From: Mytilus trossulus
Taxonomy: Eukaryota
DNA length: 64,000 nt
NCBI RefSeq assembly: GCF_036588685.1
Contig: NC_086378.1
Span: 84,816,001-84,880,000, forward strand
Reading direction: 5' to 3'
In this document: piece after piece, positions 3,397-63,689 of the stretch
How the letters are laid out: every line of letters starts with the position of its first letter
Position numbering within the stretch: position 1 is the stretch's first letter
The notes under the pieces: generated by a model
The model's input: only the letters and a program-made list of their open reading frames with translations
What the model was told of the DNA's origin: nothing
Databases searched by the model: none
Position numbers and translations under genes: made by a program

Positions 3397-3714
3397 GTAG
3401 TTATCAAAGGTACCAGGATTATAATTAAGTACGCCAGACGCGCGTTTCTTCTACATAAGACTCATCAGTGATATTCAGGGCTGGTGATACCCTCCGGGAC
3501 GAAACATCCACTATCAGTGGCATCGACCCAGTGGTGTAAATACTTATTAAAGGTACCAGGATTATAATTTAGTACGCCAGACGCACGTTTCGTCTACATA
3601 AGACTCATCAGTGATATTCAGGGCTGGTGATACCCTCCGGTACGAAACGTCCACTATCAGTGGCATCGACCCAGTGGTGTAAATACTTATTAAAGGTACC
3701 AGGATTATAATTTA

Positions 3715-3762
3715 GTACGCCAGACGCACGTTTCGTCTACATAAGACTCATCAGTGACGCTC
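3715..3762 (-). ncRNA. Type I hammerhead ribozyme, core intact
   Basis: Minus strand: GAGCGTCA-CTGATGA-GTCT TATGT AGAC-GAAA-CGTGC-GTC|TGGCGTAC. Stem I GCGUCA/UGGCGU, stem II GUCU/AGAC, minimal stem III. Confidence 0.88.
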
Positions 3763-4061
3763 ATATTAAAATATACAAACAAGTACGAAGTTGAAGAGCA
3801 TTGAGGATCCAAAATTCCAAAAAGTTGTGCCAAATAAGGCTAAGGTTCTCTATTCCTGGGATAAGCAAATCCTTAGTTTTTTCGTAAATTCAAAGTTTTG
3901 TATTCAGGAGATTTATGAAAATGACCACATAATTGATATTCATGTCAACACCAAAGTGCTGACTACTGAGCTGGTGATACCCTCGGGGACGACATGTCCA
4001 CCAGCAGTGACATCGACCCAGTGGTGTAAATAGTTATCAAAGGTACCAGGATTATAATTTA

Positions 4062-4109
4062 GTATGCCAGACGCGCGTTTCGTCTGCATAAGACTCATCA
4101 GTGACGCTC
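4062..4109 (-). ncRNA. Type I hammerhead ribozyme, core intact
   Basis: CTGATGA-GTCT TATGC AGAC-GAAA-CGCGC-GTC|TGGCAT on the minus strand; palindromic stem III ACGCGCGT; one stem I mismatch. Confidence 0.82.
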
Positions 4110-4851
4110 AAATATTTATAAAGTACGAAGTTGAAGAGCATTGAGGATCCAAATCTCCAAAAAGTTGTGCCAAATAAGGCTTTGGCAAGACAGTATGAAC
4201 AATTTAGTATGCGAGACAATATGAACAAAGTTGTGCCAAATAGGGCTTTGGCAAGACAGTATGAACAATTTAGTATGCGAGACAATATGAACAATTTAGT
4301 ATGCGAGACAATATGACCATTTAGTATGCGAGGCAATATGACCATTTAGTATGCGAGGCAATATGACCATTTAGTATGCGAGACAATATGACCATTTAGT
4401 ATGCGAGGCAATATGACCATTTAGTATGCGAGACAATATGAACAATTTAGTATGCGAGGCAATATGAACAATTTAGTATGCGAGGCAATATGACCATTTA
4501 GTATGCAAGACAATATGACCATTTAGAATGCAAGTAGTTATCAAAGGTACCAGGATTATAATTTAGTACGCCAGACGCGCGTTTCTTCTACATAAGACTC
4601 ATTAGTGATATTCAGGGCTGGTGATACCCTCCGGGACGAAACATCCACTATCAGTGGCATCGACCCAGTGGTGTAAATACTTATTAAAGGTACCATGATT
4701 ATAATTTAGTACGCCAGACGCACGTTTCGTCTACATAAGACTCATCAGTGATATTCAGGGCTGGTGATACCCTCCGGTACGAAACGTCCACTATCAGTGG
4801 CATCGACCTAGTGGTGTAAATACTTATTAAAGGTACCAGGATTATAATTTA

Positions 4852-4899
4852 GTACGCCAGACGCACGTTTCGTCTACATAAGACTCATCAGTGACGCTC
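4852..4899 (-). ncRNA. Type I hammerhead ribozyme, core intact (duplicate of 3715-3762)
   Basis: Same sequence as the 3715 copy. Confidence 0.88.
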
Positions 4900-5199
4900 A
4901 TATTAAAATATACAAACAAGTACGAAGTTGAAGAGCATTGAGGATCCAAAATTCCAAAAAGTTGTGCCAAATAAGGCTAAGGTTCTCTATTCCTGGGATA
5001 AGCAAATCCTTAGTTTTTTTCGTAAATTCAAAGTTTTGTATTCAGGAGATTTATGAAAATGACCACATAATTGATATTCATGTCAACACCAAAGTGCTGA
5101 CTACTGAGCTGGTGATACCCTCGGGGACGACATGTCCACCAGCAGTGACATCGACCCAGTGGTGTAAATAGTTATCAAAGGTACCAGGATTATAATTTA

Positions 5200-5247
5200 G
5201 TATGCCAGACGCGCGTTTCGTCTGCATAAGACTCATCAGTGACGCTC
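5200..5247 (-). ncRNA. Type I hammerhead ribozyme, core intact (duplicate of 4062-4109)
   Basis: Same sequence as the 4062 copy. Confidence 0.82.
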
Positions 5248-6579
5248 AAATATTTATAAAGTACGAAGTTGAAGAGCATTGAGGATCCAAATCTCCAAAA
5301 AGTTGTGCCAAATAAGGCTTTGGCAAGACAGTATGAACAATTTAGTATGCGAGACAATATGAACAAAGTTGTGCCAAATAGGGCTTTGGCAAGACAGTAT
5401 GAACAATTTAGTATGCGAGACAATATGAACAATTTAGTATGCGAGACAATATGACCATTTAGTATGCGAGGCAATATGACCATTTAGTATGCGAGACAAT
5501 ATGACCATTTAGTATGCGAGGCAATATGACCATTTAGTATGCGAGACAATATGAACAATTTAGTATGCGAGGCAATATGAACAATTTAGTATGCGAGGCA
5601 ATATGACCACTTAGTATGCGAGACAATATGACCATTTAGTATGCAAGGCAACACGAACAATTTAAAAGCTGGTAACGAAATCTAACAAATACTGTCATAG
5701 ATAATTTCAATTTGAGATACATTTATATAAACGAGACAAATATAAAGTGAAACACATGGTAAGTTACTAGATGAGGTATTAACAAACAATAAAGGTTTAA
5801 TACCCTTCAAAAATTGGGTGGGATATAATATTAACAAAGTGTTCCTGTCCTGTCTGTCGGATTGTCCATAGATCTTGAAAGTGAGACTGATGCTTGAGGC
5901 AGAATAATTTTTGTAGCAACTGAATAGGACAGATTATTGTTTTGTCAAAAAGAGTGCAGATTATTTTTTGTCAAAATAGAGGCCAGTTTTTCTTTTCTTA
6001 AAAAAAAATTCCCCTCTTTTCCCCTTATTCTCTTTTTTTTTGTTTAGTCAATTTTTCTCTATTTGTAATTAAGTAATTTCTTGTCAATTCTTTAAAGCCC
6101 ATACCAGCCTTAATAAGTGATGGGTAGATGTTTAGGAGATTATGTAATTTAGGAAAACTTTAACTCAAATAGCTGTTTCCTATAATATGTTTGTTTTTGT
6201 TTTTGTTTTTGTCACTCACTAATTGTGTTTAAATAAAGATATTTATATAAAACAAAGGTTACAGGTTAAACCTTTTTAATATTTGAGACAATCATGCAGA
6301 AATGTTTTCCACACCGTACTTATTTTTCAGTTTCGGTTCTAATATTTTCGTTGATAACTCAGTGCCTAATTTCTTTGATAACTATTGTTCAATGATATAT
6401 TTGTACTATTTGTAAACATCAATATATATATATTTATACGTCATACTTTGAACGACAATTTTTGTTTATGTCTACCTGTGCAAATTTCAAACGTGCAATT
6501 TTACCCCAGTACTGAAAACCTTCTATCCTTTACGGGTAAACTTTACATGCATAAATTAAGTCGTATACGAATAACAAAA

Positions 6580-9983: not shown

Positions 9984-12455
9984 AAAAAAGGGACAGTCAA
10001 ACTCATAAATCTAAAACAAACTGACAACGCCATGGCTAAAAATGAAAAAGACAAACAGAAAAACAATAGTACACATGACACAACATAGAAAACTAAAGAA
10101 TAAACAACACGAACCCCACCAAAAACTAGGGGTGATCTCAGGTGCTCCGGAAGGGTAAGCAGATCCTGCTCCACATGCGGCACCCGTCGTGTTATCGTTT
10201 ATTAAGCAATTAATGTAATGACTTTTACAGACATTTATCAAGCAATTAATGTAATGACTTTTACAGACAAAAACGATGTTATTTGGGGCTTTGTCTGCGG
10301 GGACAACAACATATTTATCATGGAGGTCGGATAGGTGTTTAGCAACATTTGGGTCTTTAAAGATTGACGTAGCATGGGCATTGATGGACCCATTCAGTTT
10401 CTTAATTCTGATTTGTATTAAGGACCTCACTGCCTTTATCCATTCGGATAGAGTGTCTACGTCTTCCTTCTCCTTGCCTGGCATAATCCTCGACTGAATC
10501 CATCAAAATTTTAAAGTTGTATTTCCAATGATGGATTTAGGCTCACGATATTTCGGACCTTTTGATAACACGTTTCGTAGAGAAGTGTTATTAACAATGT
10601 TAAGGTCACCGGTAATAACGTGGCCAGCAGGATTATATGTGAATTGGGAACTAGCACAAGTGCAATCAGGAGGTTTAGACTTGAAGTCGTCAATATCGAG
10701 ATCCTGCAAAACGCGTTTGTAATTGAAAATTTTAGTTGCAATAGGTTTGGTATAGGTATAAGAAATTATTGGTACAGACTGGTCTTTAAAATAAGGAGGT
10801 ATTTTCGATTGAACTATTTTAGATGAAGGATATTGCCAAGGTTGATGCCATCGAGACCTTTGTTGGCAAAGGAAATATTTAGAAAAGATCTTTTCTCTTT
10901 TACATGTTTTCCAATGCGAACTGGCTTGAAAAATCTGTGACTTGCAATATCCGAAATTATAGCTTGAAGTTTGTATTGGTTTGAATGAGGGTTTGTAACA
11001 GTGGATTCCAAACATAATTTGAACAGAGAATGAAGTTTTGAAAGGGGTAATGAATAAAGTTTCGTGCGAATGTGATGAATACCTAACGGTTTTTGTATGA
11101 ATGGCAGCAATTCATCAATAGAGACATCATGCAGAGAGGGTGATGTATAATGACGATGACCATGACTGCGTCTACGTCGAGGAGTCGAGTTGAAAATATT
11201 CATTACATTCACCGAGTTACACGAAGGACTAGATAGAATACCTATACCATCAATTTTGTCATTGCAGCCATACGGTGTTGCAGTTCCCAATCGTCTAATC
11301 CAGTAGTCTTCTTTTTGTCTACGGAGAGTCGTTGAAAGATTAGGATTGTTAGAGCAATGGTATATCTTTTCGATAATGCGAACTGTCATAGAAACGATGG
11401 AATGATCAGGTTGATTGAAATGCTGGTATAGAATGTCGTTAGCATTGAGGTTAATGTCTGATCTATGACCGCACATCCGTTTGTTTATCCTTCCTTTCGT
11501 TTCACCGACGTATACCAATCCGCAAAGGTTGCACTCTAATCCGTAGACGACATTTATCGATTTACAATTCAGATCATCGTAACTTCTGGTAAAATATGAC
11601 TTCTTGGTCAAATTGCTAGTGATTTCAGCATCTGTAATTAAAATAGCACAAGTTTTGCAGCCTTTGGTCTCACATTTTGAAATGCGACAGTGTTGTACTG
11701 TGTCATCAAAAACCAAAATGTCTTTAAGGAGAACTGAACATGGCTGTATATGTGTAATGTTGCTGTTGTCACTAGGACGATGATCTGAATGAGTCGTGTT
11801 TGGGATATTTGTCATGTCTGGTGATGAGGGGACACCTGCCGTATCAGACGACACCGTGTCCATGGTGACGTCTGTTTCGGACCTTTTTATACTGGGCGAC
11901 GTCCGAGCCAGTTTCCTGTTAGTTCTTCGTAAGTTCATGCAATTGTTGTTTTGCTACTGGGCGGATGATGTCCTCGGGGACAAATTGTCCACCAGCAGAG
12001 ACATCGACCCAGTGGTAATAAAAGAGGGACGAAAGATACCAAAGGGACAGTCAAACTCATAAATCTAAAACAAACTGACAACGCCATGGCTAAAAATGAA
12101 AAAGACAAACAGAAAAACAATAGTACACATGACACAACATAGAAAACTACAGAATAAACAACACGAACCCCACTAAAAACTAGGGGTGATCTCAGGTGCT
12201 CCGGAAGGGTAAGCAGATCCTGCTCCACATGCGGCACCCGTCGTGTTGCTTATGTGATTACAAATCCGGTTAATAGTCTAATTCGGTAGGTCAAATTCAT
12301 GAAAGGGAAGGTGATTGTATTTACGACGTAAGGAAAATATCCGATATCATTTGTGAAATGGTTATTCCATAACGGTCAACCAACTAGTGATGGCGTCCGT
12401 AAAATTTACGAAGGGATGATTTCAACTTCACCATTTAGAACTCTTGATTTAATAG
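9984..12455 (-). mobile_element. Penelope-like retroelement with N-terminal GIY-YIG (Naiad/Chlamys-type domain order), RT core deleted, flanked by direct copies of its 3' end (pseudo-LTR)
   Basis: ORF 10814..11938 has a Cys cluster (CxxxxCxxC) and VVYGLECNLCGLVYVGET...RMCGHRSDI (GIY-YIG). Frameshifted continuation KGPKYREP...VVVPADKAPNN (RT N-terminal part). 3'-end repeat at 9984-10195 and 12017-12455; the latter encodes the RT C-terminus KSSLRKFYGRHH*LVDRY. Confidence 0.88.
10814..11938 (-). pseudogene. PLE polyprotein N-terminal part, GIY-YIG endonuclease
   Basis: 374-aa ORF with GIY-YIG motifs and EDYWIRRLGT...PYGCN; ends by frameshift, with the continuation in ORFs 10503..11015 and 10011..10484. 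Confidence 0.85.
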
Positions 12456-12742: not shown

Positions 12743-15700
12743 CCAACAACCATTTGATTTTCTGGTGGGGGTAGGTGGTGGTGGCTATTGAGTATTGATT
12801 GTATTGAAGAAAAAAAGTTTGTTTCCAATTTTTGGATAAAAAATAATTTGTTTTTGACCCTGAGAAAAAAAAATGTTTGTTTAACCCTCAGTTGCCATTT
12901 AATGTAATGCTACTATTAAAAGAGAAGAATTGTTTTCAACTTGTCAGGGGAAAAACCCATAGTCCCCCCTCCCTGAAAACAAATGGTTGCTGCCTTCAAA
13001 CAATCTCTTTCAGAGTATCATTTAAATCAATTTTATTCAAAGCATTATTATACCGACATGAAGTGTGACTTCATTTTCACTTGTGATCTTAAACATAACT
13101 GTTGACTTAGCCCCAAGAACTGCTCTGAAATACTTTTATATAAATATAAAAATTGATAGTTTTTTTAATGTTATCATTATTTATTTTCAAACAGAAAAAG
13201 AATAATATTTAATCTAATTTATTTTCATGTTCATGATTAGCCCCATTTATTTTTTGGTTTAGTGTGTTATTTTTATAATTTGAGTCCATTCATTAGAACA
13301 ATAACTTGCATGAAATCAATGACACAACATTTATTGTTATATTTAGTTTGTTCATACAAGGATTGCAAACTAATTTTCCTTTTATTTAAAACAATGAAGC
13401 CTTTGCATTCAGAATACTTTCATTATGATCTTTTTTAAGTTTAAATGAAAAAGGTAGTACCAACTTGCAAGTCTCAGTATTAATAAAAAGGAACTTCTAG
13501 TTTTTTATCATTTTAATACTGTCTTGATCCATTATTCATGAATATCTGAACTACCCCTTGTATGAATTGAGGAAATATTTATTTCTGTGTTAAAATAATT
13601 TGTTTGCAGCAGTAAAAATACCTACCAAAACATGAATATTAAATTAAATCTTGGAATATTAGATTATTAACCCTGGTATGGCACATAGGGACACATACAG
13701 TAGAGCCTTTTTCACTGGAACTGAGTTCTGAAAAGTGATAAAATATGTTTTTCTATTTTTTGGCACATGTTTACAGTATCAAAATGTATATAAGAAGATT
13801 ATTTTTAATAATATCCACTTGTAAATAACAGCATATGGTGTTTGATATAAAAATAGTTTGTTCATGATAGTGTCAAACAAAGGGACGTAACTCGTGAATT
13901 ATCGTCGGCTCCGCTTCGTCAGAAATTTCGACACATCTAACTGGCATATTTGCGTATCTTAGCATATCAACTGGCACAAATTTGACATATCATAGTCCAA
14001 GTTATGTTACATAACATAATTTAAATTCAGCATAGCTTCACAAGAAGTTAAGAAAGAAAATTACGATTTAAATTTTCTGTGACCAATTTTTTTCGTCAAC
14101 ACCTTGACTTTGAAGACACATATGAGAGAAAAAATGAGTTTTATCCATAAAGAGTTAAGTAATATATTTCCTATATACTCAAGAATGTTCACTTTAGATT
14201 AAAATAGTTTTAATTCATGCAATTACTACAAATTCCAAAAAACGGGCTTAACTTTTTTTTGTAAAATATGCCCAAATATGGTAATTACATGACGTCCATT
14301 GTTGCTTTAAGAAATGGTCAAACCAGGGTCAGCTTTCCAACTGATTACAACGGCGAATGACGGCAAATGATATATGACGTAATGATGACGTTTTATGAAA
14401 AAAAGAAAACTGAAACAAAACAAAAATGAAAACCACATGATGAACAAAATATATAAAATGTATTCAAAAATTATAGGAAAAGTGTTTTTTCAGAAATATA
14501 ACGAATATGGAAAAAATAATTATTATTTTTTATACAAAGGACACATATGTCTTTCCAGCAGTAAGAGGGTTACAATTCGCAGATTTGATTCGGATAGAAG
14601 CTAACCAATTTCGGAAGCATATTCATGAATCAAAGTTTTTCAACTATCTTCACAGTTGGAAAGCAGGTCATTGTTTGACCCTAAATTCATCAGCAACAAT
14701 AGAGTCACGTGACCGTGAAAATTCAGTAAAAAAACGGAGACAGACCTCATTTTTACTCACTAAATACTATTGTCGTAATAAAAATTTATTGACCTATCAA
14801 ATCTTGAGTGTCCATAGTTTATTCTCGTCAAAGCTCACACATCAAATCAAAGTCTTTTATTCTTTATTTTATCTGCAAACTTTGAGTTTGGGTGAAAATT
14901 GTCAAGTCTCCTGATCGAAAAATCTAATTATTAACGAGGAAACTAAAAATGATGGGTTGCATTTAAATTTAATAAATTGTTTTCGATACAAAGCGGTGGT
15001 CACTTAAATTGATGTATAAAAGTAAAAAATGATGGCTTCAAAAAATTCTAAAAATTTAAATCGGTTTCCCGGTTTCATTTAAGATTTCAACCGTTCTTTT
15101 CTGTATTTGGATACGCAAACGTCAAATTAGGAAAAATCGATATGGTCATTTTTATTAATTTCCTGTTTACAAAACTTTGAATTTTACGAAAAACTAAGGA
15201 TTTTCTTATCCCAGGTATAGATAACCTTAGCCGTATTTGGACTTTTGGATCCTCAATGCTCTTCAACTTTGTATTTGTTTGGCTTTGTAAATATTTTGAT
15301 ATGAGCGTCACTGATGAGTCTTATGTAGACAAAACGCGCGTCTGGCGTACTAAATTATAATCCTGGTTCCTTTGATAATTATTTAAGCCGATAGATTTGG
15401 CGGACTTTTTGACGTTACGGACGACTGTAGCGCCACCTAATTACCCCCCCCCCCCCCCCTGCTATTGTTGCTGATACAGCTTGACGACAACGGACGTTTC
15501 CAAGGACTTGCTTCTCAACAGGTCATACACAGCAAATATCAATTGCAAGACTTAAGTCAACAATGGGACTGATATTAAAACGCGCCATTCTGAAATTGCG
15601 TTAATTTCGCGGATTTTTTTTGTACCAATTTGGAAGGTTTTTTTTTCAGTTTCCTACTTGTCATTAGGGTCTAAAATAGATTTATTTCGATTTGTTAATC

Positions 15701-42455: not shown

Positions 42456-44847
42456 TTATATACAAAAAATGTCATACATAATAGAAAAGGCTTCGTTTTT
42501 TGTATTCGGTTTAAAATATTTGAGCAAAAACTGCATTTCTTGTTTTATCATATTTAAAATCAACGATTTACTTATCCCTTTATTTTGATATTTTGCGATA
42601 TTTCTAGTTTTCCAGATAACCCATTTTGTGATTAGAAGTACCGTATCTAAAATTTGGGTATAAGATGCATCTGCATTAATGACCCCAAATATTATACTTG
42701 TTTCCGATTTTTGTAATTTTTCGATATTTAATTGTGAACAAAATTCCCATATTTTCTCAAAAATTCCCGCCAAACGTCTTCCACCAGTTTACAATAAATA
42801 AAAAGATGAAAAAGTGATTCTTTTTCATTGCAAAAGTGACACTTCCCGTTTGAGCGATTCATTTTTTGTAATTTTTCTTCAGTGTAAATTATATTATGTA
42901 GTAACTTACATTGAAGTTGTTTAGTTTTCCTATTAGCTAAATTCTTATTCAAGGTTTCCCAAATGTATTCCCATGGTAGCTCATTCCCAAAATGTAAATT
43001 CCACTTTTTCCCCAAACCCAAATTTTAATAAACAAAAATCGATCCATTCCCATTCCACCCTATCAAATGCTTTTTGTTGATCCAAAAATAATATTGCACC
43101 CTCCTCATCTTCTAATTCACAAAAATCTATAACATCTTGTAGTAATCTATTGCCTTGAAAAATGCTGCACCCTTTGACAAACCCTTTTTGATCGAAATCA
43201 ATTATTTGCGGTAATACATTTTTTAAATTTTCCGCGAGTACTTTGGAAATAATTTTATAGTCCGTGTTCAAGAGCGTTATAGGACGCCAATTTTTTATGT
43301 CTTCTCTCTCCCCAAACTGACGTGGAAAGGTAAACATAAGCGTAATCATACCTCTATATTGAGATTCACAGAGCAAATTGTTGTCAAAGATATCCTTAAT
43401 AACCGCCACGAAGTCTTCCTTTATCAAATACCAATATATTTTGTAAAATTCATTTACAATTCCGTCTTCCCCAGGGGATTTTATCAGGTTTCAAGATTGT
43501 AATGGCCTTACTTATTTCATCCAAAGTTATTTCCATTTCACACATTTTTTTATTTTCTTCGGTTAGTTTATGATCTATATTCTGTAATAGATTTTCTGCC
43601 GCCTCCCTATCCCACCCCTCAGACGTAAATAAATTTTTGCAGAAAGATACTTGTTCTTCTAAAATAGATTCTATATAATCTTTATACTTTCCGTCTGCAC
43701 CTTTTATTCTAGACCATAATTTTTCCGCGCCCCTCTTTTTTTCTAGATTAAAGAAGTACCCTGTAGATTTTTCGCCTTTCTCGTACCAATTAACCTTCGA
43801 CCTAATTCTGACTGCCTCTTTTTTGTCATAATAGTCTTTTATTTTAACTTTTAAATCATTCAATTCGTTTTCATTATTTGTAAGATCGGATCCCGTAATT
43901 TTATCCAATTTTTTCCCCCACTCCCTTATTTGTTTTTCTGTAACGTTTAATTGTTTTGCCACTTCTATAGTAAGACTTTTGATTTTTATCTTAGTGTCCT
44001 CCCACCATTCAAGACTATTTGCGAACTTATTTTTTTTTTTAATTTCCAGTTTTCCAAAAAGCTTTCGAAAGTATTTCTAAATAAGTCTGATTGAATAACT
44101 GATGAGTTCATTTTCCACGTTCCGGGACCGCGTTCTGGTTCATTTGTTTTTAATTCCATGAATACACCGTCGTGGTCACTGAACGGGAAATAAACTATTT
44201 TTGCCTGTTGCGATTTATATTGAAGCTCACTACTTATAAAGATGTAGTCAATTCGTGACCTTGAGTTACCTCGACAAAAAGTATATTGTTTTTCTTTAGG
44301 AAATCGTTTTCTCCACACGTCTATTAATTCGTTATGCTCGACAAATGTTTTTAATTCCATCGATCCAATGTCTTCTCGAAAAGGCTCCGGTTTTCGATCT
44401 AAGTTTTTTTATAAGAGCACAGTTAAAATCCCCAAGAACAATATTTCTATTACCGTTATCAATGAGAATATTTTTTTCAAAAAATAATTTTCTGTCACCA
44501 GCCAAATTGGGAGCATAAATATTGTAAATAAAAAACCTGTTATTCCCTGGTGTTTTATCATGTACAGAAATTGTTCTTCCATTATTATCTTGGCCGTTTT
44601 TTGAAATTTGAAATTTATTTTTTTCTGAAAAAAGAATTGCTACCCCTTTTGAATTACTTGATCCATGATTCCAAAAACTGCCCCCCTTCCATTCCTTTTT
44701 CCATTTTGTTTCGACCTCACTAGAGCTATGTGTTTCTTGCAAGTATATTACGTCAATATTTTTCTTTTTACACCAGTAAAAAACGGCATTTCGTTTTTTG
44801 TTATCTACCATACCATTGACATTCAAACTAACAATCGAAATTGACAT
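42456..44847 (-). pseudogene. LINE ORF2 (APE-RT-CCHC), multiply frameshifted, with an internal RT deletion at ~43005
   Basis: ORFs 44332..44847, 43986..44360, 43450..43962, 42981..43427, 42728..43021 and 42456..42773. FGFGEK is fused directly to KWNLHFG, so no YADD region remains. Confidence 0.88.
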
Positions 44848-45459
44848 AATACAAAGTTATGGCAAAATAATGCTTTGTTTTGTTCATAATCATAAGTGCT
44901 ACAGATATGTAACAAGAATTTACACACAATGTATAGATAGTTTCTCACAATAACAAACGTATCATTTTCCTCGTGCATACTTATGACATCGTCACAGTTC
45001 GCTGGGATGAGCATACACCCGTAATTGCCTTTTAAATTTTATTAAATAAACACCTTCATTCATTTTATGAATTTGTGATCTAGGCCGAAACTCACATTGG
45101 TAACTACAAATAAAGATGGAAACTTGTTTTCGTTGGTCAACATAATAATTAAACATATTATATATTTTACTATCTGATAATGTATTGGTAATTTCATAGT
45201 GTACGTTGGTGAACACACTTAAGTTACAACAACTCTTTAAAATATTTGTCAATTTTACAATGATTATAGGGTCACAATTCAGGACATAGTCCACGTGTTT
45301 ATATGTAAATAAAAATAAACAAAAAATTTTTACAAGCTGTTTAAAAAATGCATTGATTTTAAATATTGTTGACAAAGTTGAATTAAACAGATGCATTATA
45401 GCAATTTAGATTTCGACTACAATAAAAAATCATGTATTATATATATTGTAAATAATTAG

Positions 45460-46935
45460 TTAGTATGGTTTGGGCATCTTGGTTGCTTGTTTCTCGCTTG
45501 AGCCAGGAGTGGAACCTGAACTTCGATTACGTTTTTTACTCGGGGTTTGATATTCACATTCACACTCTGAATTGATAAAGTCCTCAAATATATTTTCTAC
45601 CAGTTCTGTACCGGACATGCTGATATGTACTCCACTCGGGTCGTTCAAATCGAACAGTGCTCGGTATGGTGTTTTGTTGGGAGCGAATTCGTCCCATAGG
45701 TCAATGTATTTCAGCACTTGACTTTTTGCACAGAGTTTTTGTGTAAAACTATTGACAGATCTTGCTGCTGTATTCAATGCTTGTATAGAGGCACTCTTAC
45801 CTCTTCTGGGTAGAAAACTGCTTATGCAATTCGTGCCTTTGGATATTTGGTTTTAACTGTATCTATGCATGTCGTAAGATTTGCCGTTATTTGCTCGGTG
45901 TCACTCCTATGCTTACTGATGTCATTTGTCCCTAATGATAAAATCACATTAGTTACAAGTTCAGAATTAAATATATAGTCAGATTGACAAACAAGTTTGT
46001 CAATTTGATCAAGAGTGGTGCCTGATACCGCTATAACATTTACACTTGTGTCCTCAATTCTAAGGCGACTGCAATTGGATGCGCCAAATATAATTGATTG
46101 AGCAATTGGGAATGTAGCGTTCTTTTTTTCAAACACACTTTCAGTGGTTTTATTCAGATCAATCACATTTTCGGTGGTTTTGTTTAGCTCGATAATAACT
46201 TCCTCTGTGTTATTATCCTCGGTACACGAGTCATCTTTATTTGCGTCTCTGCCTTCCTGAATATCATGTACATAGTCACCATACATTTCTTGGTCATCAG
46301 TCTGACAATCTCTTTGTATGTGACCTTCTTTTCCGCACCGATAGCATAACTTTTCGGAGTGGGGACAATCTTTTATTGTATGTGAAGAACTGTTGCATCG
46401 ATAACATTTGCGTGCCGCTTGATTTTGACGGGTGGGTTTGTTTGTGCATCGATAGGATGAATGGTCTGTTTTCGTACAGTACGGACACTCTGTCCTATTA
46501 TTGTCTGCGAATACCCTGACACTGAACCTCCCGAATTTGGTTGCGGTCGGAATTATTGGGACACAGTTTGTTAGTTGCACATAACGTGTACCGGTCTCAA
46601 TGTTGGTATCTTTAATTAGACCCTTGCGTAGGGACCCATTCACAACACTACCAAATTTTGAAATATGGCCACATATTGTAATGTCACTCATTTCACACGG
46701 GGCATCTTTTATAGTCACATTTGTAACTTGTTGTTCTACATCTACCATTTTGATGAAACGGTTTTTCAAGTTTATTCCTCGTGTGAGTAAAGTATGTTTT
46801 GTGTTCTGGTCGTTTACTGTAACTATACAATCTTTCTCTGTAATTTGTATGGTTTTTATTTCGTTTTGATCAACTAGAGTTTTTAGTTCATTTAATACAT
46901 CAGTATGTGTAATACCCTTGGTGAAACTAATACCG
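45460..46935 (-). pseudogene. LINE ORF1: RRM-like region + 3 CCHC knuckles + SGNH/GDSL esterase-like domain, one frameshift near 45825
   Basis: CPYCTKTDHSSYRC, CYRCNSSSHTIKDC, CYRCGKEGHIQRDC; then IIFGASN, VSGTT, SLGTNDI and (ORF 45460..45777) DPSGVH. Confidence 0.82.
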
Positions 46936-47529
46936 ATACTGAACAAATTAACTTTAACTAAACTTTAAACTAATGATCGCGTATTGTCTAGTTGCAAGTA
47001 TGTAATGCATATTTAGAGAGAACATACAAGTTTTAATGTTTTTGCAGTTCGTTTTAGAGAGAACATTGGCTACCTGTTTTTATTTATTTTTTTACATTTG
47101 AACATACATGTTTTAGTGTTTTTACTTTTCAATTGTTAAGATAAACTTTAGGTTGCATATTGTCCAGTCGCAAGTATTTTATGCAAATAGGAGAAAACAT
47201 ACAAGTTTATTTCAGTTCTACTGAATGAATTAACTTTAGGCTGTTGATTGCGAATTGTCAAGTTGTCAGTATTTTGTGCATAAATAGAGAGAATTTTAAA
47301 GTTTTAACGCACAAAGAAAAGGACACTTTGACCCGTTAACTGTACAGTTTAACTCAACATTTTTGCTTACAATTTACGTACGATATAGCCGAAATAACGC
47401 CCCCACTTTAATTAAGGTCAAGGAACAGTAAATGGGCTATGTCGCAGATTTTGCTAAAAATTTGCATACAACCTTGGCTTGTTGAACTACAACTGAAAAT
47501 CGAAAAATAATACATTTATCTCTTTTATT

Positions 47530-50868: not shown

Positions 50869-51310
50869 AGCTATTTACACTATTGGGAAGATACCACTGC
50901 TGACGGATGTTTCGTCCTCGCGGGTATCACCAGCCAAGTAGTCAGCACTTCGGTGTTGACATGAAAATCAATTATATGGTTATTTTAGCAAATTTTGGTT
51001 CATATGGTTTCGAAAACTAGACATTTTCTTATCCTAGGAATAGAACATCTTAGTCGTTTTTGCACATTTTGTTTTAAATCGGTCCAGAGTAATATTTAAC
51101 TTTGTACATGTTTGGCTTTATAACTATTTTTATTTGACGTCACTGTTGAGTCTTATGTAGACAAAACGCACATCTGGCGTATTCAATTTTAATCCTGGTA
51201 CCTTTCATCCATTCACAATACTGGGTCGATCCACTGCTGGTGGACATTTCGTCTCCGAGGGTACCAAAAAGCCCAGTATTCAGCACTTCGGTGTTGACAT
51301 GAATATCAAT
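50869..51310 (+). mobile_element. Degenerate retrozyme (~1.3 monomers) with dead hammerhead (CTGTTGA / AAAA / ATC)
   Basis: CTATTTACAC...GGTATCACCAGCC..GTCAGCACTTCGGTGTTGAC...CACTGTTGAGTCTTATGTAGACAAAACGCACATCTGGCGT. Confidence 0.78.
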
Positions 51311-51364: not shown

Positions 51365-52885
51365 GAACCTGTTGATACAACATGTCTTGTTGCAATTAGA
51401 TGATAAACATGAATACATACACAATAGAAATTACATGTAGGGAGTTGAAGCAGTGTACATATTATTATTCAATCATTTTCAGAGGTCAGTGCACTGACCT
51501 GACCACGCAAAATATATATTTATATAAAAAAATGTCACACATAGTAGAAAGGCTTCGATTTTCGTATTGGATTTGAGATATTTGAGCAAAAATTGCATTT
51601 CATGTTTTATTATATTTAAAATCACCGATTTACTTATCCCTTTCTTTTGATATTTTGCGCTATTTCTAGTTTTCCAGATAACCAATTTCATGATTAAAAG
51701 CACCATATCTAAAATTTTGGCATAAGATGCATCTGCATTTATGACCCCCAAAATTATAATTGTTTCCGATTTTTGTAGGTTTTGGGTATTTAATTTTGAG
51801 CAAAATTCCCTTATTTTCTCAAAAATGTCCCGCCAAACGTCTTCCACCAGTTTACAATTAATAACAAGATGAAATAGTGATTCTTTTTCATTGCAAAAGT
51901 GACACTTCCCGTTAGAGCGATTCACTTTTTGTAATTTTTCTTCAGAGTAAATTATATTATATAGTAATTTCCATTGAAATTGTTTAAATTTCCTGTTAGC
52001 TAAATTCTTATTCAAAGTTTCTCAAATGTAATCTCATTGTAGTTCATTCCCAAAATGTAAATTCCACTTCAACTGACTAATTGGAGCTGTTTTATTTTCA
52101 TAAAAGTATCTAATATCTTTAAGGTATAATTTTTTTGCATCAACGACAACTCCATTTTTTTATAAATTGAGAAGAATTTATTATTTTTATAGGTCTATCA
52201 GAATGACTTTGTATGCTACAGTCTGTTTTTAAAACGTCAATTTGTTGGGGTGTTAACGAAGATTTAATGCGGCTATATTGTGCAATCCAAGTCCTTTTAT
52301 CTTTAAGATGGTAAAAAATATCAAAGGGAGTTTTGAAGGATTTATTGTTTAAGTACCATATATCGTTAATTTTTTTTATTCCACTGGAGGCAAAATTTGT
52401 ATAATATAATGCATGTCCCTTGAACATAAAATTTACAATTCCCGAAAATATTTTCTTCTAAAAGGTCCTCTTTTGTGACCGATTTTTGAATTTGCTGTAA
52501 GTCAGACCAGGAAATTAAAAGTTAATATTTGGACATTTGTATTTGCCTAAAACATGTATTGTCCGAACTAGAACATATAAAAAAATGTGTATCATATTTT
52601 TCGTCTAGTGACGTTAACCAGTATTTTCCTATTGCATTCCATTTTTTGTGTGTTTGAGTTGACACAACAGTACATACTTTTCGCTTGTTTTGATTTTATA
52701 AAGTCTCTTAAGTTTATCATTCCTATCCCCACTTTTTCTCTCGATAAACAGCACACTGTTCTTGTGATTTGGTTTGTTTTCCAATCCCATGTAAAGGACC
52801 ATATGATATTATTTATTTGTTTTACGTATATATCCGGGATACCTCTCATTTCAATTTCGTATCCAATGACGGACAGTTCAAAGGA
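51365..52885 (-). mobile_element. Second copy (3' part) of the L1/Tx1 LINE family
   Basis: ORF 51479..52015 closely matches ORFs 42728..43021 and 42456..42773; 3' UTR matches ~42295-42450; retains part of the sequence deleted from the first copy. Confidence 0.9.
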
Positions 52886-53223
52886 TTTAATAAAAGAGGG
52901 ACGAAAGATACCAGAGGGACAGTAAAAGTCATAAATCTAAAACAAACTGACAACGCCATGGCTAAAAATGAAAAAGACAAACTGAAAAACAATAATACAC
53001 ATGACACAACATAGAAAAAATAAACAACACGAACCCCACCAAAATCTAGGGGTGATCTCAGGTGCTCCAGAAGGGTAAGCAGATCCTGCTCCACATGTGG
53101 CACCCGTCGTGTTGCTTGTGTGGTTACAAATCCGGCAAATCGTCTAATTCGAGAGGTCACATTCATGAAAGGGAAGGGGATTGTAGTAACGACGTGAGGG
53201 ACATATCCGATATCATTTGTGAT

Positions 53224-54123
53224 TAGTTATCAAAAGTACCAGGATTATAATTTTATACGCCAGACGCGCGTTTCGTCTACATAAGACTCATCAGTGACGC
53301 TCAGATCAAAATAGTTAAAAAGCCAAATAAATACAAAGTTGAAGAGCATTGAGGATCCAAAACTCCAAAAAGTTGTGCCAAATACGGCTAAGGTAATCTA
53401 CTCCTGGGGTAAGAAAATCCTTAGTATTTCGAAAAATTCAAAGTTTTGTAGACAGAAAATTTATAAAAATGACCATATAATTGATATTCATGTCAACACC
53501 GAAATGCTGACTACTGGGCTGGTGATACCCTCGGGGACGAAACGTCCACCAGCAGTGGCATCGACCCAGTGGTGTAAATAGTTATCAAAAGTACCAGGAT
53601 TATAATTTTATACGCCAGACGCGCGTTTCGTCTACATAAGACTTATCAGTGACGCTCAGATCAAAATAGTTCAAAAGCCAAATAAATACAAAGTTGAAGA
53701 GCATTGAGGATCCAAAACTCCAAAAAGTTGTGCCAAATACGGCTAAGGTAATCTACTCCTGGGGTAAGAAAATCCTTAGTATTTCGAAAAATTCAATGTT
53801 TTGTAAACAGAAAATTTATAAAAATGACCATATAATTGATATTCATGTCAACACCGAAATGCGGACTACTGGGCTGGTGATACCCTCGGGGACGAAACGT
53901 CCACCAGCAGTGGCATCGACCCAGTGGTGTAAATAGTTATCAAAAGTACCAGGATTATAATTTTATACGCCAGACGCGCGTTTCGTCTACATAAGACTTA
54001 TCAGTGACGCTCAGATCAAAATAGTTAAAAAGCCAAATAAATACAAAGTTGAAGAGCATTGAGGATCCAAAACTCCAAAAAGTTGTGCCAAATACGGCTA
54101 AGGTAATCTACTCCTGGGGTAAG
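53224..54123 (-). mobile_element. Non-LTR retrozyme tandem array: ~2.5 x 355-bp monomers, three hammerhead motifs
   Basis: Near-identical units offset by exactly 355 bp (53257, 53612, 53967), each with a type I hammerhead on the minus strand. Confidence 0.92.
53255..53302 (-). ncRNA. Type I hammerhead ribozyme, canonical core
   Basis: GAGCGTCA-CTGATGA-GTCT TATGT AGAC-GAAA-CGCGC-GTC|TGGCGTAT; predicted cleavage between window positions 53263 and 53262. Confidence 0.9.
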
Positions 54124-54190
54124 ATACCGAAACGGTTATTCCATAACGGTCAACCAACTCGTGATGGCGTCCGTAAAACTTACGAAGGGA

Positions 54191-57100
54191 TCGACTAGCT
54201 GCTGTAATGTACTTTGCCATAACGTTATAGTCCAAGTGTTCTGTAAAAACTAAGCCCAAATATGTGTAACGTTCTACTGTCTGTAAAATGTGGTTTTCGC
54301 AATGACAGGTTGTTTGACTTCTCGGGAACGAATTTGGACGAAAGTGAACTATATTTGACTTGTTGTCGTTTATTGTCATCTTGTTATCGGTACACCATAA
54401 ATCTAATGCACCAAGTTATGTTTGTAGCTCTGTTTCTGTGTTTGATAACAACACTTAATCATCGGCATAAAGTAACATGGACACCTTTTCCCCATCGATG
54501 TCAATTCCAATATCTAGTGAATCGATATATGTAGCTAATCCGTTTATATATAAGTTGAAAAGTAATGGCGACAACCAACAGCCTTGTTTAAGACCACATT
54601 GAACGTTGAATCAGTCTGTCTGATGTCCATTTATGCGAACACAGCATTCCACGGACTTATACAGAGACAAAATAACGTTATAAATATTCCCACAGATACC
54701 AAGGTCGAATAGTTTCTGGAATAACATCGCTCGATATATCCCGTCATATGCCTTACGAAAATCAATAAATGCAACGAAAGTCGATAAACGTTTCAATTTC
54801 CTAGTCTCTCTTATTGATATTAACGATTTGATGTGATCAATTGTACTGCGCCCTTTTCGGAATCCGTTTGACTGTCATGAAGAATGTCATTTTCGTTCTC
54901 CCATTTTACTTACCTGTTATTAAGTATATGACAGTATAGTTTATAGCACACTGGTACCAACGTTATACCTAGGTAGCTCATTTGGGTCTTTCGGATTTGA
55001 TGCTGACGATTTCGGGATTGGGTTTATATTTCCCTTTGTCCACGTTGCAGGGATAACTCCACGCGAAAAACTCTTGTTGAACAGTTTGTGTAAAAAGTTC
55101 AGTAAACTTGGGACTTAGGATTTCTGCCGGTATTTCGTCCACGCCAACGGCTTTGTTACGCTTTAGGCTACGCATAGCGTTCACTTCTTCAAAACTTGTG
55201 ATTCCATTATTCATTTCAATCTCGGTATCAAGTCTTTGGTCCATTACGTATTCTGAATTGACAGTTTCTGGGTTCAGTAAACTACAATACGAACGTTTCC
55301 ATTCAGTAACCACTGCTTCACGACCATGGGCTATGCTTCCGTCTGGCAATTGAACCGACATAGGTATAAGTTTTCTTCGTTCTGTACCAACACCAATACG
55401 TCCGATTTTTTTCCAAAATTCGCTATGATTAGTGGTTTCGATGTCGTCTATTTCAACCATCTGTTTTCTCCAATGTGTTCGTTTTGCCCTCTTTGCTTCA
55501 CGGTTGAATGTTTTCCTTTTATCAATGAATTCAATGCGACACTGACGCTTTCTTGAATCAGATTTACTTCCAAGCATGGCTTTCTCAGCAACACAGACAT
55601 TATTCCATAGTTGTGTGAGTTTATCTGTCCACCACGGTTTTTTTAATTCGTCGTCTTTTGTTGTTTAATAACCCGGATGACATTTTAATCACTTTATAGC
55701 TTAAATTTTCCGTCATTTCGACTTCCAATAAATTCACAAAATCACTATAAATTTGATCAATTTCAGAACAATTTGCACTTTGCACTTCCAATGATGAAAA
55801 TATATCTTCTATTTTATGTAAATGTGTTGCTAAGAATGAGCTGGGAATGTTATTAAGATCGTGCTTTTTATATTCACAAGTGTTAATTTCTTCATTCATA
55901 TTTCCTCTCACAATTTTATCTTTATTTATATTCCATATCAACATTGAGTGGTCAGGTTTCGACACGCGTGGATCGGCATATTCTAATAATTTGTGCTTTT
56001 CTAATAATTCTGACATAGTAATAACTTCAAAATTTTCAAACAGATTAAGAAGTTCGTAAGGAACGATGCAGTAATCCACCACAGATTAACCAAGCTGAGA
56101 GACATATGTTTAGTTATTTTTAACACAATTTCGTCCATTTAATATACAACAACTTGAATTAATCAAATATTCACATAATAGTTCTCCGTATAAATTACTC
56201 TGAAAATCGACTATATTTCTTTCCGGGATTTTGTCAACACCAGGTATATAATCCTCAAAGTTTGAACAACGACTGTTGAAATCCCCACATAAGAAAAATA
56301 AGGAATATTTCCCGTACATATGAACTTGACTCAGTAAAGCATCATGAAACTCATTTGCATCAACATGTCTTGTCGAATTTACCGGTGGCAGATAAAATGC
56401 ACACGCTTTAAAGCAAGCTTTTCTATCCTTGTGTTCTAAGTTTATCCATAAAATTCCCTCTTTCGATGAATCAATCACTTCTATATTGTATTGCGTTGCT
56501 AAAATGCTCCGCACTAGATACCAGACCCCTCCGGAACCTTTTTTCGCTCTAACATGTATCTCAGATCGGTTATGTCCTATCCACTTATATCCAATCATTT
56601 CAATTCCGTTGTTTTCTGTCAAATGCGTCTCCGCGATTCCTATTAAGTCTAATTGTTCTTGTTCTATACAAGTTTGTCGTAAAATGTGATTTTCGGACCT
56701 AGCTATTTCAAAAATGTTCCATCCTTTTACATTCCAAAACAAGCAACGCCACTAACGATAACTCCTGTTGCTATTACTGACATTTCGCTCATTTGAGTGA
56801 CGTTGGTCTCTATTCCAGTCATTTTTGCGACGATTATAGTCTCTGCGACCGTTTGCACGATTATCGCGATGATCGTTATCGTATCTATTGTTCATGTATC
56901 CATTATTCCTTTAATTAGTATTGCTGTTATCGAGAATATTGACGCTGAATTTTTTCAATTGAATTCGTGATCCCCGGATTTTAAGCTTGTCATTTCCGAT
57001 CGTTTTCACAATGTGCCGTAGGTTTGCGTTTAACATACGTTGTGATTTTGGCAGGTCATGGTCAATAAAGACATCCCTGAAATTTCTTGTGTCTTTTAGA

Positions 57101-58110
57101 TTCCTCTTCACTTCCGTGACTTTGTGCTTGTCCTCCGTACTTTCCAATTTTACTATAATGACACCCGGTTTGTTTTCGCGCATACTTTTCTTACGGTCAA
57201 CTGACTGAATACGTATGTCTTTTAGTCGTAGTCCGTCCTTTAAAAATCCGTTGACTTTGTTAATGTTTTCATTATTGCTTTCCGGTAAGTTACGGATGAT
57301 GATGGTATTTCGTTGATCATCAATGTTTAGTCTCTCATTCGGCTGTTTTTTGTACTCCTGCATAGGATTTTTTCATTGAAGAAAGTTCTTTCTGTACACA
57401 TTCTATATACTTCTTAACTTCTTTTTTAAACTTTGACATTTCATCATCAACTTTTTTCTCTAATTTCTGTAGGTCTTTTTTCATATTTTTGCGCTCTTCA
57501 TCTATCACCTTTTTAATCTTTTTATCTACCACTTGTTCGATTGTTTTTGAAATATTACTTTCTATGTTATCTATTCTTGACGATAATTGATCACAAAATG
57601 TGTTCATCGTCTCCGTTAAGGTAATCATCATGGCCTTTTTATCATTGATATCGCTGCCTGAACACTGTTTATTTTCTTTTTCAATACACTGTGCGACAAC
57701 TGATTCGTGTCCAATTTCGTTATCTGTTACGGTAGTCTCGCTTCGTTGTTGTTTAAGGTTTCGCTTGTTAAGGTCGCCTGATCGTCGACGTTTTGATCTA
57801 GTTTTAGGTTTATCTTGTGAAATTGAGATATTAAAGTTACTCACTGGTCTCTCTGCATGAATTTCAACTGGGACAGCAATCTGATTCGGCGTTTCGGGTG
57901 CCATTACTGCTTGAACATAATTGTCCGCGGACTGCTAGCTCAGAGGATTCATCTCAGAATCGGTCATTTTCCACTTAATCCACTATATTTTGATTAATAG
58001 TATATTCTGAATACCATACACATAAATCCAAACGTTCAATACAGCAATTATATCCCCAAAAATACGACAAATCATATAATTTTATCCACAAAAATTTGCA
58101 CCACTTGTTT
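54191..58110 (-). mobile_element. Decayed two-ORF APE-RT LINE (CR1/L2-like ORF1; clade uncertain), 3' end lost
   Basis: ORF1 57335..57904 and 56911..57363 (coiled coil, then IIIRNLPE...VFIDHDLP). ORF2 WNVKG, IAETHL, CGDFNSR, VDYCIV, PDHSML, AFIDFRKAYD, GLKQGCWLSPLLFNLYI and a YADD-like stretch near 54460. Confidence 0.88.
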
Positions 58111-61857: not shown

Positions 61858-63689
61858 TCTCAAAAAAAGAGCTTTCGGTGGCCATATGTGACGCACTTTT
61901 TCGCATGCTATCAAGAGTTAGTATGACAATATGAGGTGTATAGTATAAATGCGATCATGATAATAAAAACGGTCAAATATTTAGCCTGTGCACTCTTGTG
62001 TTTACTGCTCACTGAACAATAGTCGTACTGTGAAAGACAAGGGGTAATTGTGAAGCCCTATTAATATTTGGATGTCGATACATAGAAACAACTTTGAATA
62101 CTTATGTGCACCTTTTCAGTGTTACTCAGATTAACTGGGAGGTCATGATTTATACTTCTATACGAAAGAGATTAGAACAATGAATTTGTTGTTGATTCCA
62201 TGAAATGTTAGATAACAACAATTACTTGGAAGATATCTAGTCTTCAATTATTGTTGATACTGTTGACTTTAAACAATCATAATAACTGGGGGTATAGTGT
62301 TATATTTATATATATATAACGATTGATACCTTTAAATGCCAGAAATAAGCAACATTAGTTCATAGATTAAACTTTTAAATATTAGAAATTAACAAATTGT
62401 AGGTCATCATTGATTCCTATGTATGATAGATGTAAGGCTTAGCATGCTCTTCAACTTTGTAATAGTTTAGTTTTATAACTATTTTAATGCGAGGCGTATT
62501 AAATTATAGGAACGGACCCTTTGATTGTTATTAGAAGTTTTTAAATGGCAAAATTCGCACGGTGATTTGTGTTGTTATCATGGCAAGTTTGAAAGGATTT
62601 TTCAAAACATGTAAAGTTAAATGTTAAGACTTTGAGGGTATTTTTTAAACAACAACACTACTTACAATCAACATTAGATGCTTCTATCAATAACTTGCTA
62701 TTCAAAAATTGATTGAAATTGAACAATATTTTATAATACACATAAATCATCAATTTAATACGAACAAGCACAGCACATTACAGCAAAACAATTTATCAAA
62801 AACAAATCATACATAGAGGGCACCATATGGTATTTTATAAAGGATAAGCTAATAAACATGGTCAAGACCACATCTATTTCGTAGTGCATGTCTTTTAGAA
62901 CATAAATGAAAATTTTAAAAATCCGACCTGCAGTTTCTCAATAAAATGTTTCAGTGTGTTGTACTACATATTGGACAAATTACTGTAAACCAACTTATTT
63001 TCGTGAGCGATTTATTTTCGCGAGTTTCGCGAGTAGAAAAATAACGCAAATATGTAAACCTTGGATATTTCCTTATTTAACTTCATCAAGTTAATCAGAA
63101 AATCGCGAAATTAAATATCCGCGAAGTGGTCAAGAAAGGGTAAAACGCGAAATAAAGTAGCCGCAAAAATAAGTAACTATAGAAAACGTCATCGGCTCTA
63201 ACTCAAAATATGGACAAATTTATGTTTAGGGGGTCTTGAAATCATTTGACAGCTTCCAAAGTGCTTATTTTTCACCTTTTTTAGCTGGACCAAATAACTA
63301 CTTTCCTTTAAAATTCGGGACACAAATTTTTTTCAAAGTGTAATTTCATCCCCCTCCTTGCAATTTGAGGCATAAAACATGGAGAAATAAATTTAGAAAG
63401 GCTATACAAAAAATTAGTAAGTAACCCACTGTCAACACTAGGGACTATGTTCGTAGACAAAGAAAATCAATGGACGACAATTGTGGTCTAGGACCTAACA
63501 ACATAAGAAGTTTCTAATAAATTAACTCATAATAGATACCAGGACAAATATTTTGTACACCAGACGAGTGTTTCTTCTACAAAAAAAAATCATCAGTGGT
63601 GCGATTGTTTCTAGTGTAACAAGTTATCATATTTCCTTATGAATAATAAACACTTAAGTGCAACTTGATCAATGATGGGATCAAATTGT

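Follow-up and report, generated by a model that had tools for sequence, protein, structure and literature searches.

A tandem mussel retrozyme carries a hairpin shared with Naiad Penelope-like elements, a candidate signal for reverse transcription

INTRODUCTION

Non-LTR retrozymes were described in the mussel Mytilus galloprovincialis as tandem, non-coding units of ~350 to 390 bp with a type I hammerhead ribozyme and a short palindromic helix III (Cervera and de la Pena 2020, PMC7229834). Roughly 5,000 motifs, falling into two families, were reported from that species, together with abundant circular RNA, monomer cleavage at ~0.1 per min and in vitro self-cleavage of a retrozyme copy. Which enzyme inserts animal retrozymes has been open since then: that work offers “LINEs or PLEs among others”, and its account of the families describes neither a shared cis element nor a fixed 3′ end. 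Penelope-like elements (PLEs) were later proposed, from sequence similarity, as both source and mobilizer of retrozymes (Li, Clavereau and Pollet 2026, 10.64898/2026.07.22.740005); the sequence comparison was made in Xenopus only, no mollusc was among the four invertebrates, the similarity was to pseudo-LTRs (pLTRs), and Naiad is mentioned only as present in a coral.

Naiads are a PLE clade with an N-terminal GIY-YIG domain, pseudo-LTRs and two diagnostic motifs, CxC and DKA, and they lack canonical hammerheads (Craig et al. 2021, PMC8557442). The words “stem-loop” and “hairpin” are absent from the main text of that study, whose description of the clade mentions neither a conserved 5′ structure nor a link to element ends or retrozymes. 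Biochemistry is available for Poseidon_Ac, from another PLE clade, whose reverse transcriptase (RT) initiates inside its RNA at sites matching genomic ends, requires a further ~55 to 60 nt of RNA beyond its start site (+111-118, with a minimum of +172) and dispenses with hammerhead cleavage (Frangieh et al. 2024, PMC11167929).

Here we analyze a window of 64,000 nucleotides from Mytilus trossulus (NC_086378.1, positions 84,816,001 to 84,880,000) that holds a tandem retrozyme array and a broken Naiad element. In SINE-LINE pairs, the autonomous partner supplies the RNA motif that its RT binds, and the short non-coding element has adopted it. The arrangement suggested here differs from such pairs in that the retrozyme motif lies downstream of the start site in a circularly permuted unit, not at the 3′ end.

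RESULTS AND DISCUSSION

The array is a young copy of a mussel-type retrozyme

The features of the array are as follows.

53224..54124, minus strand (RNA sense): retrozyme array of 2.5 units of 355 bp (TRF, unit comparison, read direction)
53257..53300, minus strand: hammerhead 1, type I, core CUGAUGA intact, predicted cut 53263/53262 (Rfam RF00163, 33.0 bits, E 1.5e-5)
53612..53655, minus strand: hammerhead 2, core CUGAUAA (G8A; T at 53644) (RF00163, 25.9 bits, E 0.003)
53967..54010, minus strand: hammerhead 3, core CUGAUAA (G8A; T at 53999) (RF00163, 25.9 bits, E 0.003)
53263..53617, minus strand: predicted 355-nt monomer (cut 2 to cut 1), including the intact core of hammerhead 1 (coordinates from the hammerhead matches)

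An earlier, sequence-only reading of this DNA had proposed near-identical 355-bp tandem units, and this was borne out: TRF returned a period of 355, 2.5 copies and 98% matches over 53224-54124 (the right edge being 54124 rather than 54123), and the units differ at 5/355 sites (units 1 and 2) or 1/191 (units 1 and 3, and 2 and 3). Head-to-tail units of this length fall within the ~150 to 450 bp of mussel retrozymes (PMC7229834). The units are non-coding and lack an LTR arrangement, GC content is 35% over 52001-54000 (<50% being expected of the type), and the only open reading frames, two of 80 aa on the plus strand, run antisense to the hammerhead and are incidental, as had been supposed. Stem II (GUCU/AGAC), the palindrome ACGCGCGU, the GUC triplet and the predicted cut between 53263 and 53262 were all found as first read. 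Minus-strand type I hammerheads match RF00163 (Hammerhead_1) at 3/3 positions, all below its gathering score of 34; the expectation of a CUGAUGA core in each unit held for unit 1 only, units 2 and 3 having CUGAUAA, so that 1/3 cores are intact. Folding of the whole 355-nt circle showed no special stability compared with shuffles (z −0.9; 18/100 shuffles equally low).

The array is almost certainly a retrozyme and is best read as a young genomic copy of the mussel non-LTR kind of ~350 nt, a likeness that rests on features rather than on clone sequence; the assignment had been made before and is supported here, and the family is expressed. Unlike the published mussel retrozymes (PMC7229834), two of its three cores carry G8A. 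By itself it is probably an ordinary and partly disabled copy.

Family copies and family RNA

The window holds further members of the family, in which P1 denotes a stem of the hairpin treated below.

3398..5319 (3398-4181, 4535-5319), minus strand: two older arrays, including 143-bp shortened units (BLAST, TRF; 3′ end as in the main array)
15140..15381, plus strand: older partial copy (BLAST; 3′ end 4 nt from P1)
50874..51310, plus strand: decayed copy, 77-88% identity (BLAST)

Another copy lies at 17589-17706 (BLAST within the window). The 143-bp units (3401-3757, 4538-4894) are reduced to the greater part of the hammerhead, the tail and a hairpin with mutations, and sit in a duplicated 1,137-bp block beside a 25-bp satellite.

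Of 24 sequencing runs, 20 contain the stretch in whole or in part, mollusc metagenomes among them. Three RNA runs and one DNA contig set were aligned to one unit (53430-53784) at 88% identity. Family reads made up 5,734 of 8.7 M, 10,001 of 7.3 M and 3,078 of 12.7 M records (658, 1,363 and 242 per million); given the further copies in the window, the family is dispersed and multi-copy, and it is transcribed in 3/3 RNA runs. In the two stranded runs, first mates on the plus strand were 6- and 13-fold commoner at the left edge and 2- and 4-fold commoner over the hammerhead. Family RNA is mostly hammerhead-sense, a strand call that assumes the usual library chemistry and was made without a control gene. 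Exact 355-nt go-back joints were likewise skewed by direction (524/85 and 1,102/71), and reads cross the cut site unbroken, with no pile-up of ends there or elsewhere in the unit. These joints and the unbroken cut site fit circles or uncut multimers of family RNA; the same joint occurs in 10 DNA contigs, and tandem read-through gives such joints too. That the family makes circular RNA is very probable. Few reads were at least 99% alike to the unit (108, 411 and 45), and the read data therefore speak for the family rather than for this locus.

Several groups of reads depart from the array unit. At 53573 and 53609 (183 and 169 reads, agreement 0.83-0.87), some RNA reads come from another family that has the hairpin in common with the unit and diverges right where the hairpin begins; others match in the hammerhead and then run into a tail unlike that of the unit, as does the decayed copy at 63537-63598. 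These reads probably stem from the second mussel retrozyme family. The subfamily of the array, as judged at 53590 and 53609, accounts for ~30% of DNA depth and of antisense reads, with ~70% of sense reads in X23 and 35-43% in X21; retrozyme expression thus differs by subfamily.

Two of three hammerhead cores carry a rare change

In a hammerhead core, G at position 8 pairs with C3. The G8 site reads as C on the plus strand in 94-99% of family reads, with G8 intact in 93.9-99.0% of family reads and 94.4% of DNA contig depth, and G8A is a rare change in this copy. Literature on hammerhead G8A itself yielded nothing relevant; a G8C change abolishes cleavage in a Penelope hammerhead (PMC11167929), and natural hammerhead variants alter both partners, as in U3-A8 covariation (PMC4209133). 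From these data and hammerhead chemistry, we predict that G8A disables cores 2 and 3. An “active” retrozyme in the sense of Li et al. (2026) has two consecutive units with complete hammerheads, and no such pair occurs here since cores 2 and 3 carry G8A. The earlier proposal that this copy is able to yield small circular RNA is accordingly doubtful: two cuts are needed and only one core is intact, so monomer release from it would depend on a double-hammerhead fold. Such a fold, a known cleavage mode (PMC4209133), is the minimum-energy cofold of isolated hammerheads 1 and 2 (−29.5 kcal/mol vs −5.7 for each alone), and this copy might release monomers through it, with core 1 cutting site 2, a possibility that we favor less than its absence. 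A higher share of intact G8 in sense than in antisense reads was considered and set aside (99.0 vs 95.9% in one run, 97.8 vs 96.4% with P = 0.06 in the other; reads are non-independent).

One template, and later changes among the units

Three family-rare alleles are common to all units covering their sites, which points to a single template for the array. Alleles A53504, T53683 and C53718 tag this locus. G8A is present in units 2 and 3 and absent from unit 1, so one pass round one circle is insufficient to explain it. The earlier idea of a recent insertion from a rolling-circle template thus survives as regards one template, and fails to account for the distribution of G8A. Mutation after insertion, followed by local duplication or conversion, is the most likely origin of G8A in these two units; the pattern may also stem from a template that was multimeric or from the assembly.

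It is possible, if somewhat doubtful, that the array is mainly a local satellite, in which a 1.5-unit insertion was enlarged by unequal crossover with no circle template and no monomer from this copy. Confinement of G8A to units 2 and 3 fits such a history, and so do the duplication within the window of the 1,137-bp block with the older arrays, the local tandems formed by shortened units of 143 and 74 bp, and the findings of Li et al., who propose local amplification and saw 8/9 tested Xenopus dimers remain uncleaved (10.64898/2026.07.22.740005). However, even 1.5 units pass through a cut site from an internal start, and the three rare alleles are common to all units. A local satellite would also bear on unit number here and is compatible with mobilization of the first insertion by Naiad.

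The array interrupts a Naiad pseudo-LTR

The insertion site and the Naiad element of the window comprise the following features.

52888..54191 (52888-53222, 54129-54191), minus strand: host repeat split by the array, a solo Naiad-family pseudo-LTR (91-95% identity to 12016-12417; its 3′ end 2 nt from the P1 start in the full element)
54125..54128, no strand assigned: four extra bases at the 5′-truncated junction, absent from the unit and from the empty site
9987..12417, minus strand: broken Naiad PLE with pseudo-LTR 12016-12417, N-terminal GIY-YIG frame 10817-11953, CxC, DKA and second pseudo-LTR 9987-10193, the RT core missing

The host repeat has an uninterrupted paralogue (91-95%) at 12016-12417, which is the pseudo-LTR of element 9987-12417, and the split repeat is therefore a Naiad-family pseudo-LTR. 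GA flanks the insert on both sides (53221-53222, 54129-54130), with extra junction bases of 1 and 4. Compared with the 91-95% identical empty paralogue, there is no target duplication beyond GA; a duplication of >4 bp is optional in retrozymes (PMC7229834).

Element 9987-12417 resembles the Naiads of Craig et al. (2021, PMC8557442) in its N-terminal GIY-YIG, CxC, DKA and pseudo-LTRs, and published consensi start at a hairpin matching its own. GIY-YIG precedes the RT (PF01541, aa 135-171, E 0.022, below the curated cut-off, with motif order in agreement), the motifs read PPDCTC (CxC) and PADKA (the DKA form of DKG), and the protein resembles Naiad_Mgal by eye. Its two pseudo-LTRs are 99% identical (12041-12247 vs 9987-10193), and no canonical hammerhead was found in 9987-12417 at the Rfam gathering score. 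The element is defective: its frames are broken, the sequence enters the pseudo-LTR right after DKA, and an intact RT domain is lacking; with this copy devoid of an RT core, no intact Naiad was found.

Other features of the window were recorded in passing. A 1,872-codon open frame at 33963-39578 (plus strand) encodes an nSTAND3 NTPase domain followed by >30 ankyrin repeats, an immune-sensor-like gene. Broken LINE-like elements with endonuclease and zinc-knuckle domains (RT-like frames by eye) lie at ~54900-57900 and 42984-46964, both on the minus strand; those at ~54900-57900 are unrelated to the array. Two 21-bp minisatellites in opposite orientation, ~3.5 kb apart (22132-22685 and 25979-26389), are possibly the ends of a foldback-type element.

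Retrozyme and Naiad share a hairpin

The sole BLAST match between the unit and the Naiad of the window covers 63 nt at 85.7% identity (E 1.7e-15; 53511-53573 vs 11954-12016, same strand) and corresponds to a predicted 58-nt stem-loop at unit positions 290-347.

53513..53570, minus strand: Naiad-type hairpin of unit 1, with stems P1, P2 and P3 and conserved core CUGCUGGU-GGA ... UCC-CCGAG (fold z −3.55, alignments, pair counts)
53868..53925, minus strand: Naiad-type hairpin of unit 2 (fold)
11956..12013, minus strand: matching hairpin within the 5′ UTR of the Naiad, flanked by the pseudo-LTR end and ATG 11938 (BLAST 85.7% over 63 nt, E 1.7e-15; fold z −4.57)

Predicted folds of the unit and Naiad hairpins are identical (z −3.55 and −4.57), and 17/17 named pairs are kept in both. 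Nine differences separate the two sequences and none breaks a pair: four amount to two double-sided changes, one turns G-U into G-C, and four lie outside the named stems. When eight sequences were aligned, 94.1% of cells paired, compared with 38-47% in slid controls, and covariation (0.286) was matched by 0/500 shuffles; five pairs had changed on both sides, a number reached by 23/500 shuffles. This set contains near-duplicates (L124/L134, L127/L120 and the two window retrozymes), and the structure was derived from these same sequences. A four-sequence alignment did not rise above shuffles (119/500).

Several identities for the hairpin were tried and rejected. It is not an antisense hammerhead or anti-hammerhead lock, as it folds on itself in the circular model, is unpaired with the core, and, inspected by eye on the plus strand, has neither stem I nor stem II. 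Readings as an HDV-like, twister, twister-sister-like or SECIS structure were dismissed, as there was no Rfam match and the loop patterns look unlike them by eye (compare PMC11620745).

The hairpin could be a passive relic, acquired by a retrozyme ancestor with a Naiad fragment and now functionless. In its favor, this genome intermingles the two kinds of sequence, the array itself sitting inside a pseudo-LTR; yet nine differences with zero broken pairs, fixed ends, and a hairpin carried by retrozymes that otherwise share nothing make this highly improbable. A role in transcription, translation or packaging (an internal promoter, export or ribosome signal), with retrozymes mobilized by another PLE or a LINE enzyme, is also unlikely, though less remote. 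The hairpin lies ~17 nt before the Naiad ATG, Penelope promoters overlap the boundary of pseudo-LTR and 5′ UTR (PMC8557442), and mussels also have hammerhead-bearing PLEs (PMC7229834). Against this, a conserved ORF that could be translated is missing from retrozymes, the double-sided changes together with the G-U pairs favor a sense-strand RNA fold, and element ends that track P1 at three different distances from the cut would go unexplained.

The hairpin opens published Naiads and recurs in other retrozymes

Among the 54 Naiad consensi in the supplement of Craig et al. (PMC8557442), the exact core word stands at the 5′ start of 12 (eight bivalves, three hemichordate families and one fish), exactly at the record start in 11, and after a leading stretch in Naiad_Pmar and Naiad_Olur. 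Variant hairpins open Naiad_Mphi and the coral Naiad_Amil, for a total of at least 14/54 consensi, from coral to fish; the starts of ~37/54 consensi lay outside the set viewed, and line breaks can hide words. Outer stems retain their pairing despite sequence differences, and at some starts an extra hairpin precedes the core (both by eye). The hairpin is absent from the starts of Naiad_Mmer and of Naiad-2_Skow, the latter incomplete, and doubtful in Naiad_Scon. Acropora possesses retrozymes alongside a Naiad that bears the variant hairpin.

Scans of other assemblies were made with the hairpin core and not with element ends. In metagenome contigs, a 15-base scan gave 118 loci, of which 117 were dropped for want of a BLAST match to the unit or the Naiad; the one retained (L037) is an independent Naiad-like contig with the hairpin at the equivalent place, although some pairs are broken (z −1.7). 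Prokaryotic genome contigs gave 17 loci with the pattern, 13 of them GC-rich, core-only matches discarded as chance; the four low-GC loci kept (L127, L124, L134 and L120) are in bacterial bins and are probably animal DNA. Viral contigs gave 0 hits in one scan and 3 chance hits in another, with no Naiad relative.

Two further bivalve-like retrozymes with different hammerheads carry the core. L127 is a retrozyme of 340 nt whose hammerhead is minimal and whose sequence is 70% like the array unit; L124/L134 is a retrozyme of 401-402 nt with another hammerhead that has only the hairpin in common with the array unit, local alignments with L134 being limited to ~30 nt of it. The L124/L134 retrozyme (L124:2645-3143, minus strand, and L134:1-496) opens two bacterial bin contigs (Gammaproteobacteria and Leptospirales), starting from an identical base in each; genes of bacterial appearance follow shortly after its 3′ end. 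It is probably a mis-joined animal repeat, although it may be a real insertion into bacterial DNA. In a bin of a deep-sea mussel symbiont (L120:2845-4720), a hammerhead is followed by satellite units of ~74 bp that contain only the hairpin (22 model hits).

Insertion ends follow the hairpin rather than the cut site

One further stretch of the array links its cut site to its end.

53224..53262, minus strand: cut site to insertion 3′ end, 39 nt, ending 8 nt short of P1, the inferred start of reverse transcription (end mapping)

The insertion 3′ end lies 8 nt from P1 in the array and 8, 8, 4 and ~0 nt from it in other copies of the window, and loose ends of the family with mixed flanks, in DNA and RNA, fall 4-6 nt from P1 (53575-53577). 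The distance is 9 nt in L127, 5 in L134 and 1 in L124 (in the last two, bacterial genes adjoin the end, which may reflect mis-joining), 2 and 5 nt in two solo Naiad pseudo-LTRs, and, by eye, 7 in Naiad_Pmar and 3 in Naiad_Olur; as an exception, the pseudo-LTR at 9987 ends 27 nt from P1. Across three retrozymes the distance from cut to P1 is 47, 38 and 79 nt, and the ends still lie 1-9 nt upstream of the hairpin. Element ends thus appear to follow the hairpin rather than the hammerhead cut.

Such ends could instead mark a cut, were the hairpin a new self-cleaving ribozyme or nuclease site acting just 5′ of P1 and replacing the hammerhead absent from Naiads. Invariant internal-loop bases between covarying stems at an element 5′ start would suit a ribozyme, HDV-like and twister ribozymes occupy that place in other retrotransposons (PMC7761336), and sense depth dips at 53550-53573. 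We nevertheless hold this to be quite improbable: RNA ends do not pile up near 53575 at one fifth of depth, arrays run through the site intact, no Rfam covariance model matched over the hairpin below E 1, and the 355-nt monomer known from mussels would not survive two cuts per unit. The ends are also spread over 1-9 nt, where a ribozyme would sever a single bond, and base identity at these places differs from family to family.

A model for mobilization by Naiad

With good confidence, we read the hairpin as an RT signal, and Naiad is a likely mobilizing partner, though the hairpin may also occur in mussel Poseidon, Neptune or Nematis elements. Mobilization by PLEs had been suggested from the sequence; it is supported and, through the shared hairpin, narrowed to the Naiad clade. 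On balance, we infer that the array was likely written by a Naiad RT that bound the hairpin and started a few bases upstream.

Under this model, family copies would be transcribed, mostly in hammerhead sense, as seen for the family in the RNA runs. Hammerheads would cut tandem transcripts to monomers and a host ligase would close the circles, steps published for mussel retrozymes and compatible with the reads here. A Naiad endonuclease-RT would then bind the hairpin, nick AT-rich DNA and prime 1-9 nt 5′ of P1, as end mapping and internal initiation in another Penelope-like element suggest; priming would fall in the U-rich stretch just 5′ of the hairpin, here inside a Naiad pseudo-LTR. A linear monomer would give a copy of ~40 nt from such an internal start, and only a circle or an uncut multimer would let copying continue past the cut site to a length of 2.5 units. 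G8A would have arisen after insertion and spread by local duplication or conversion, leaving later monomer release to the double hammerhead only.

The nearest biochemical precedent is the RT of Poseidon_Ac (PMC11167929), which like the proposed Naiad enzyme performs target-primed reverse transcription from inside its RNA and requires downstream RNA. It differs in that it belongs to another clade and starts in an AC-rich stem-loop 111-118 nt inside its ORF, not before a 5′ UTR hairpin, and no non-autonomous partner was tested with it. The array also departs from the PLE-retrozyme relationship of Li et al. (10.64898/2026.07.22.740005): what its unit shares with the Naiad is the 5′ UTR hairpin and no pLTR sequence, and hammerheads are absent from the partner clade.

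Implications for retrozymes and Naiads

The kind of element is already known, and what is new is the hairpin shared with Naiad and the ends that track it. A literature search made without subscription papers or Repbase found no report of a Naiad hairpin or a Naiad-retrozyme pair. The shared hammerhead had pointed to hammerhead-bearing Penelope elements as the partners of retrozymes; the bivalve evidence points to the one abundant clade without them. A 58-nt element and a start site are now named and testable in an existing in vitro assay, and for Naiads there is now a conserved RNA structure from which the position of the 3′ end can be predicted.

More broadly, we lean, by a little over even chances, toward the reading that Naiads from coral to fish carry a previously undescribed 5′ hairpin, a landing site for internal RT initiation, and that bivalve retrozymes with unrelated hammerheads have captured it. 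The finding suggests a route by which circular RNA may serve as a template for target-primed reverse transcription. If the reading is true, a retrozyme would be a two-part parasite, with a hammerhead for making the circle and a portable Naiad signal of ~60 nt for writing it into DNA, and any circular RNA with the hairpin would be copied into tandem arrays.
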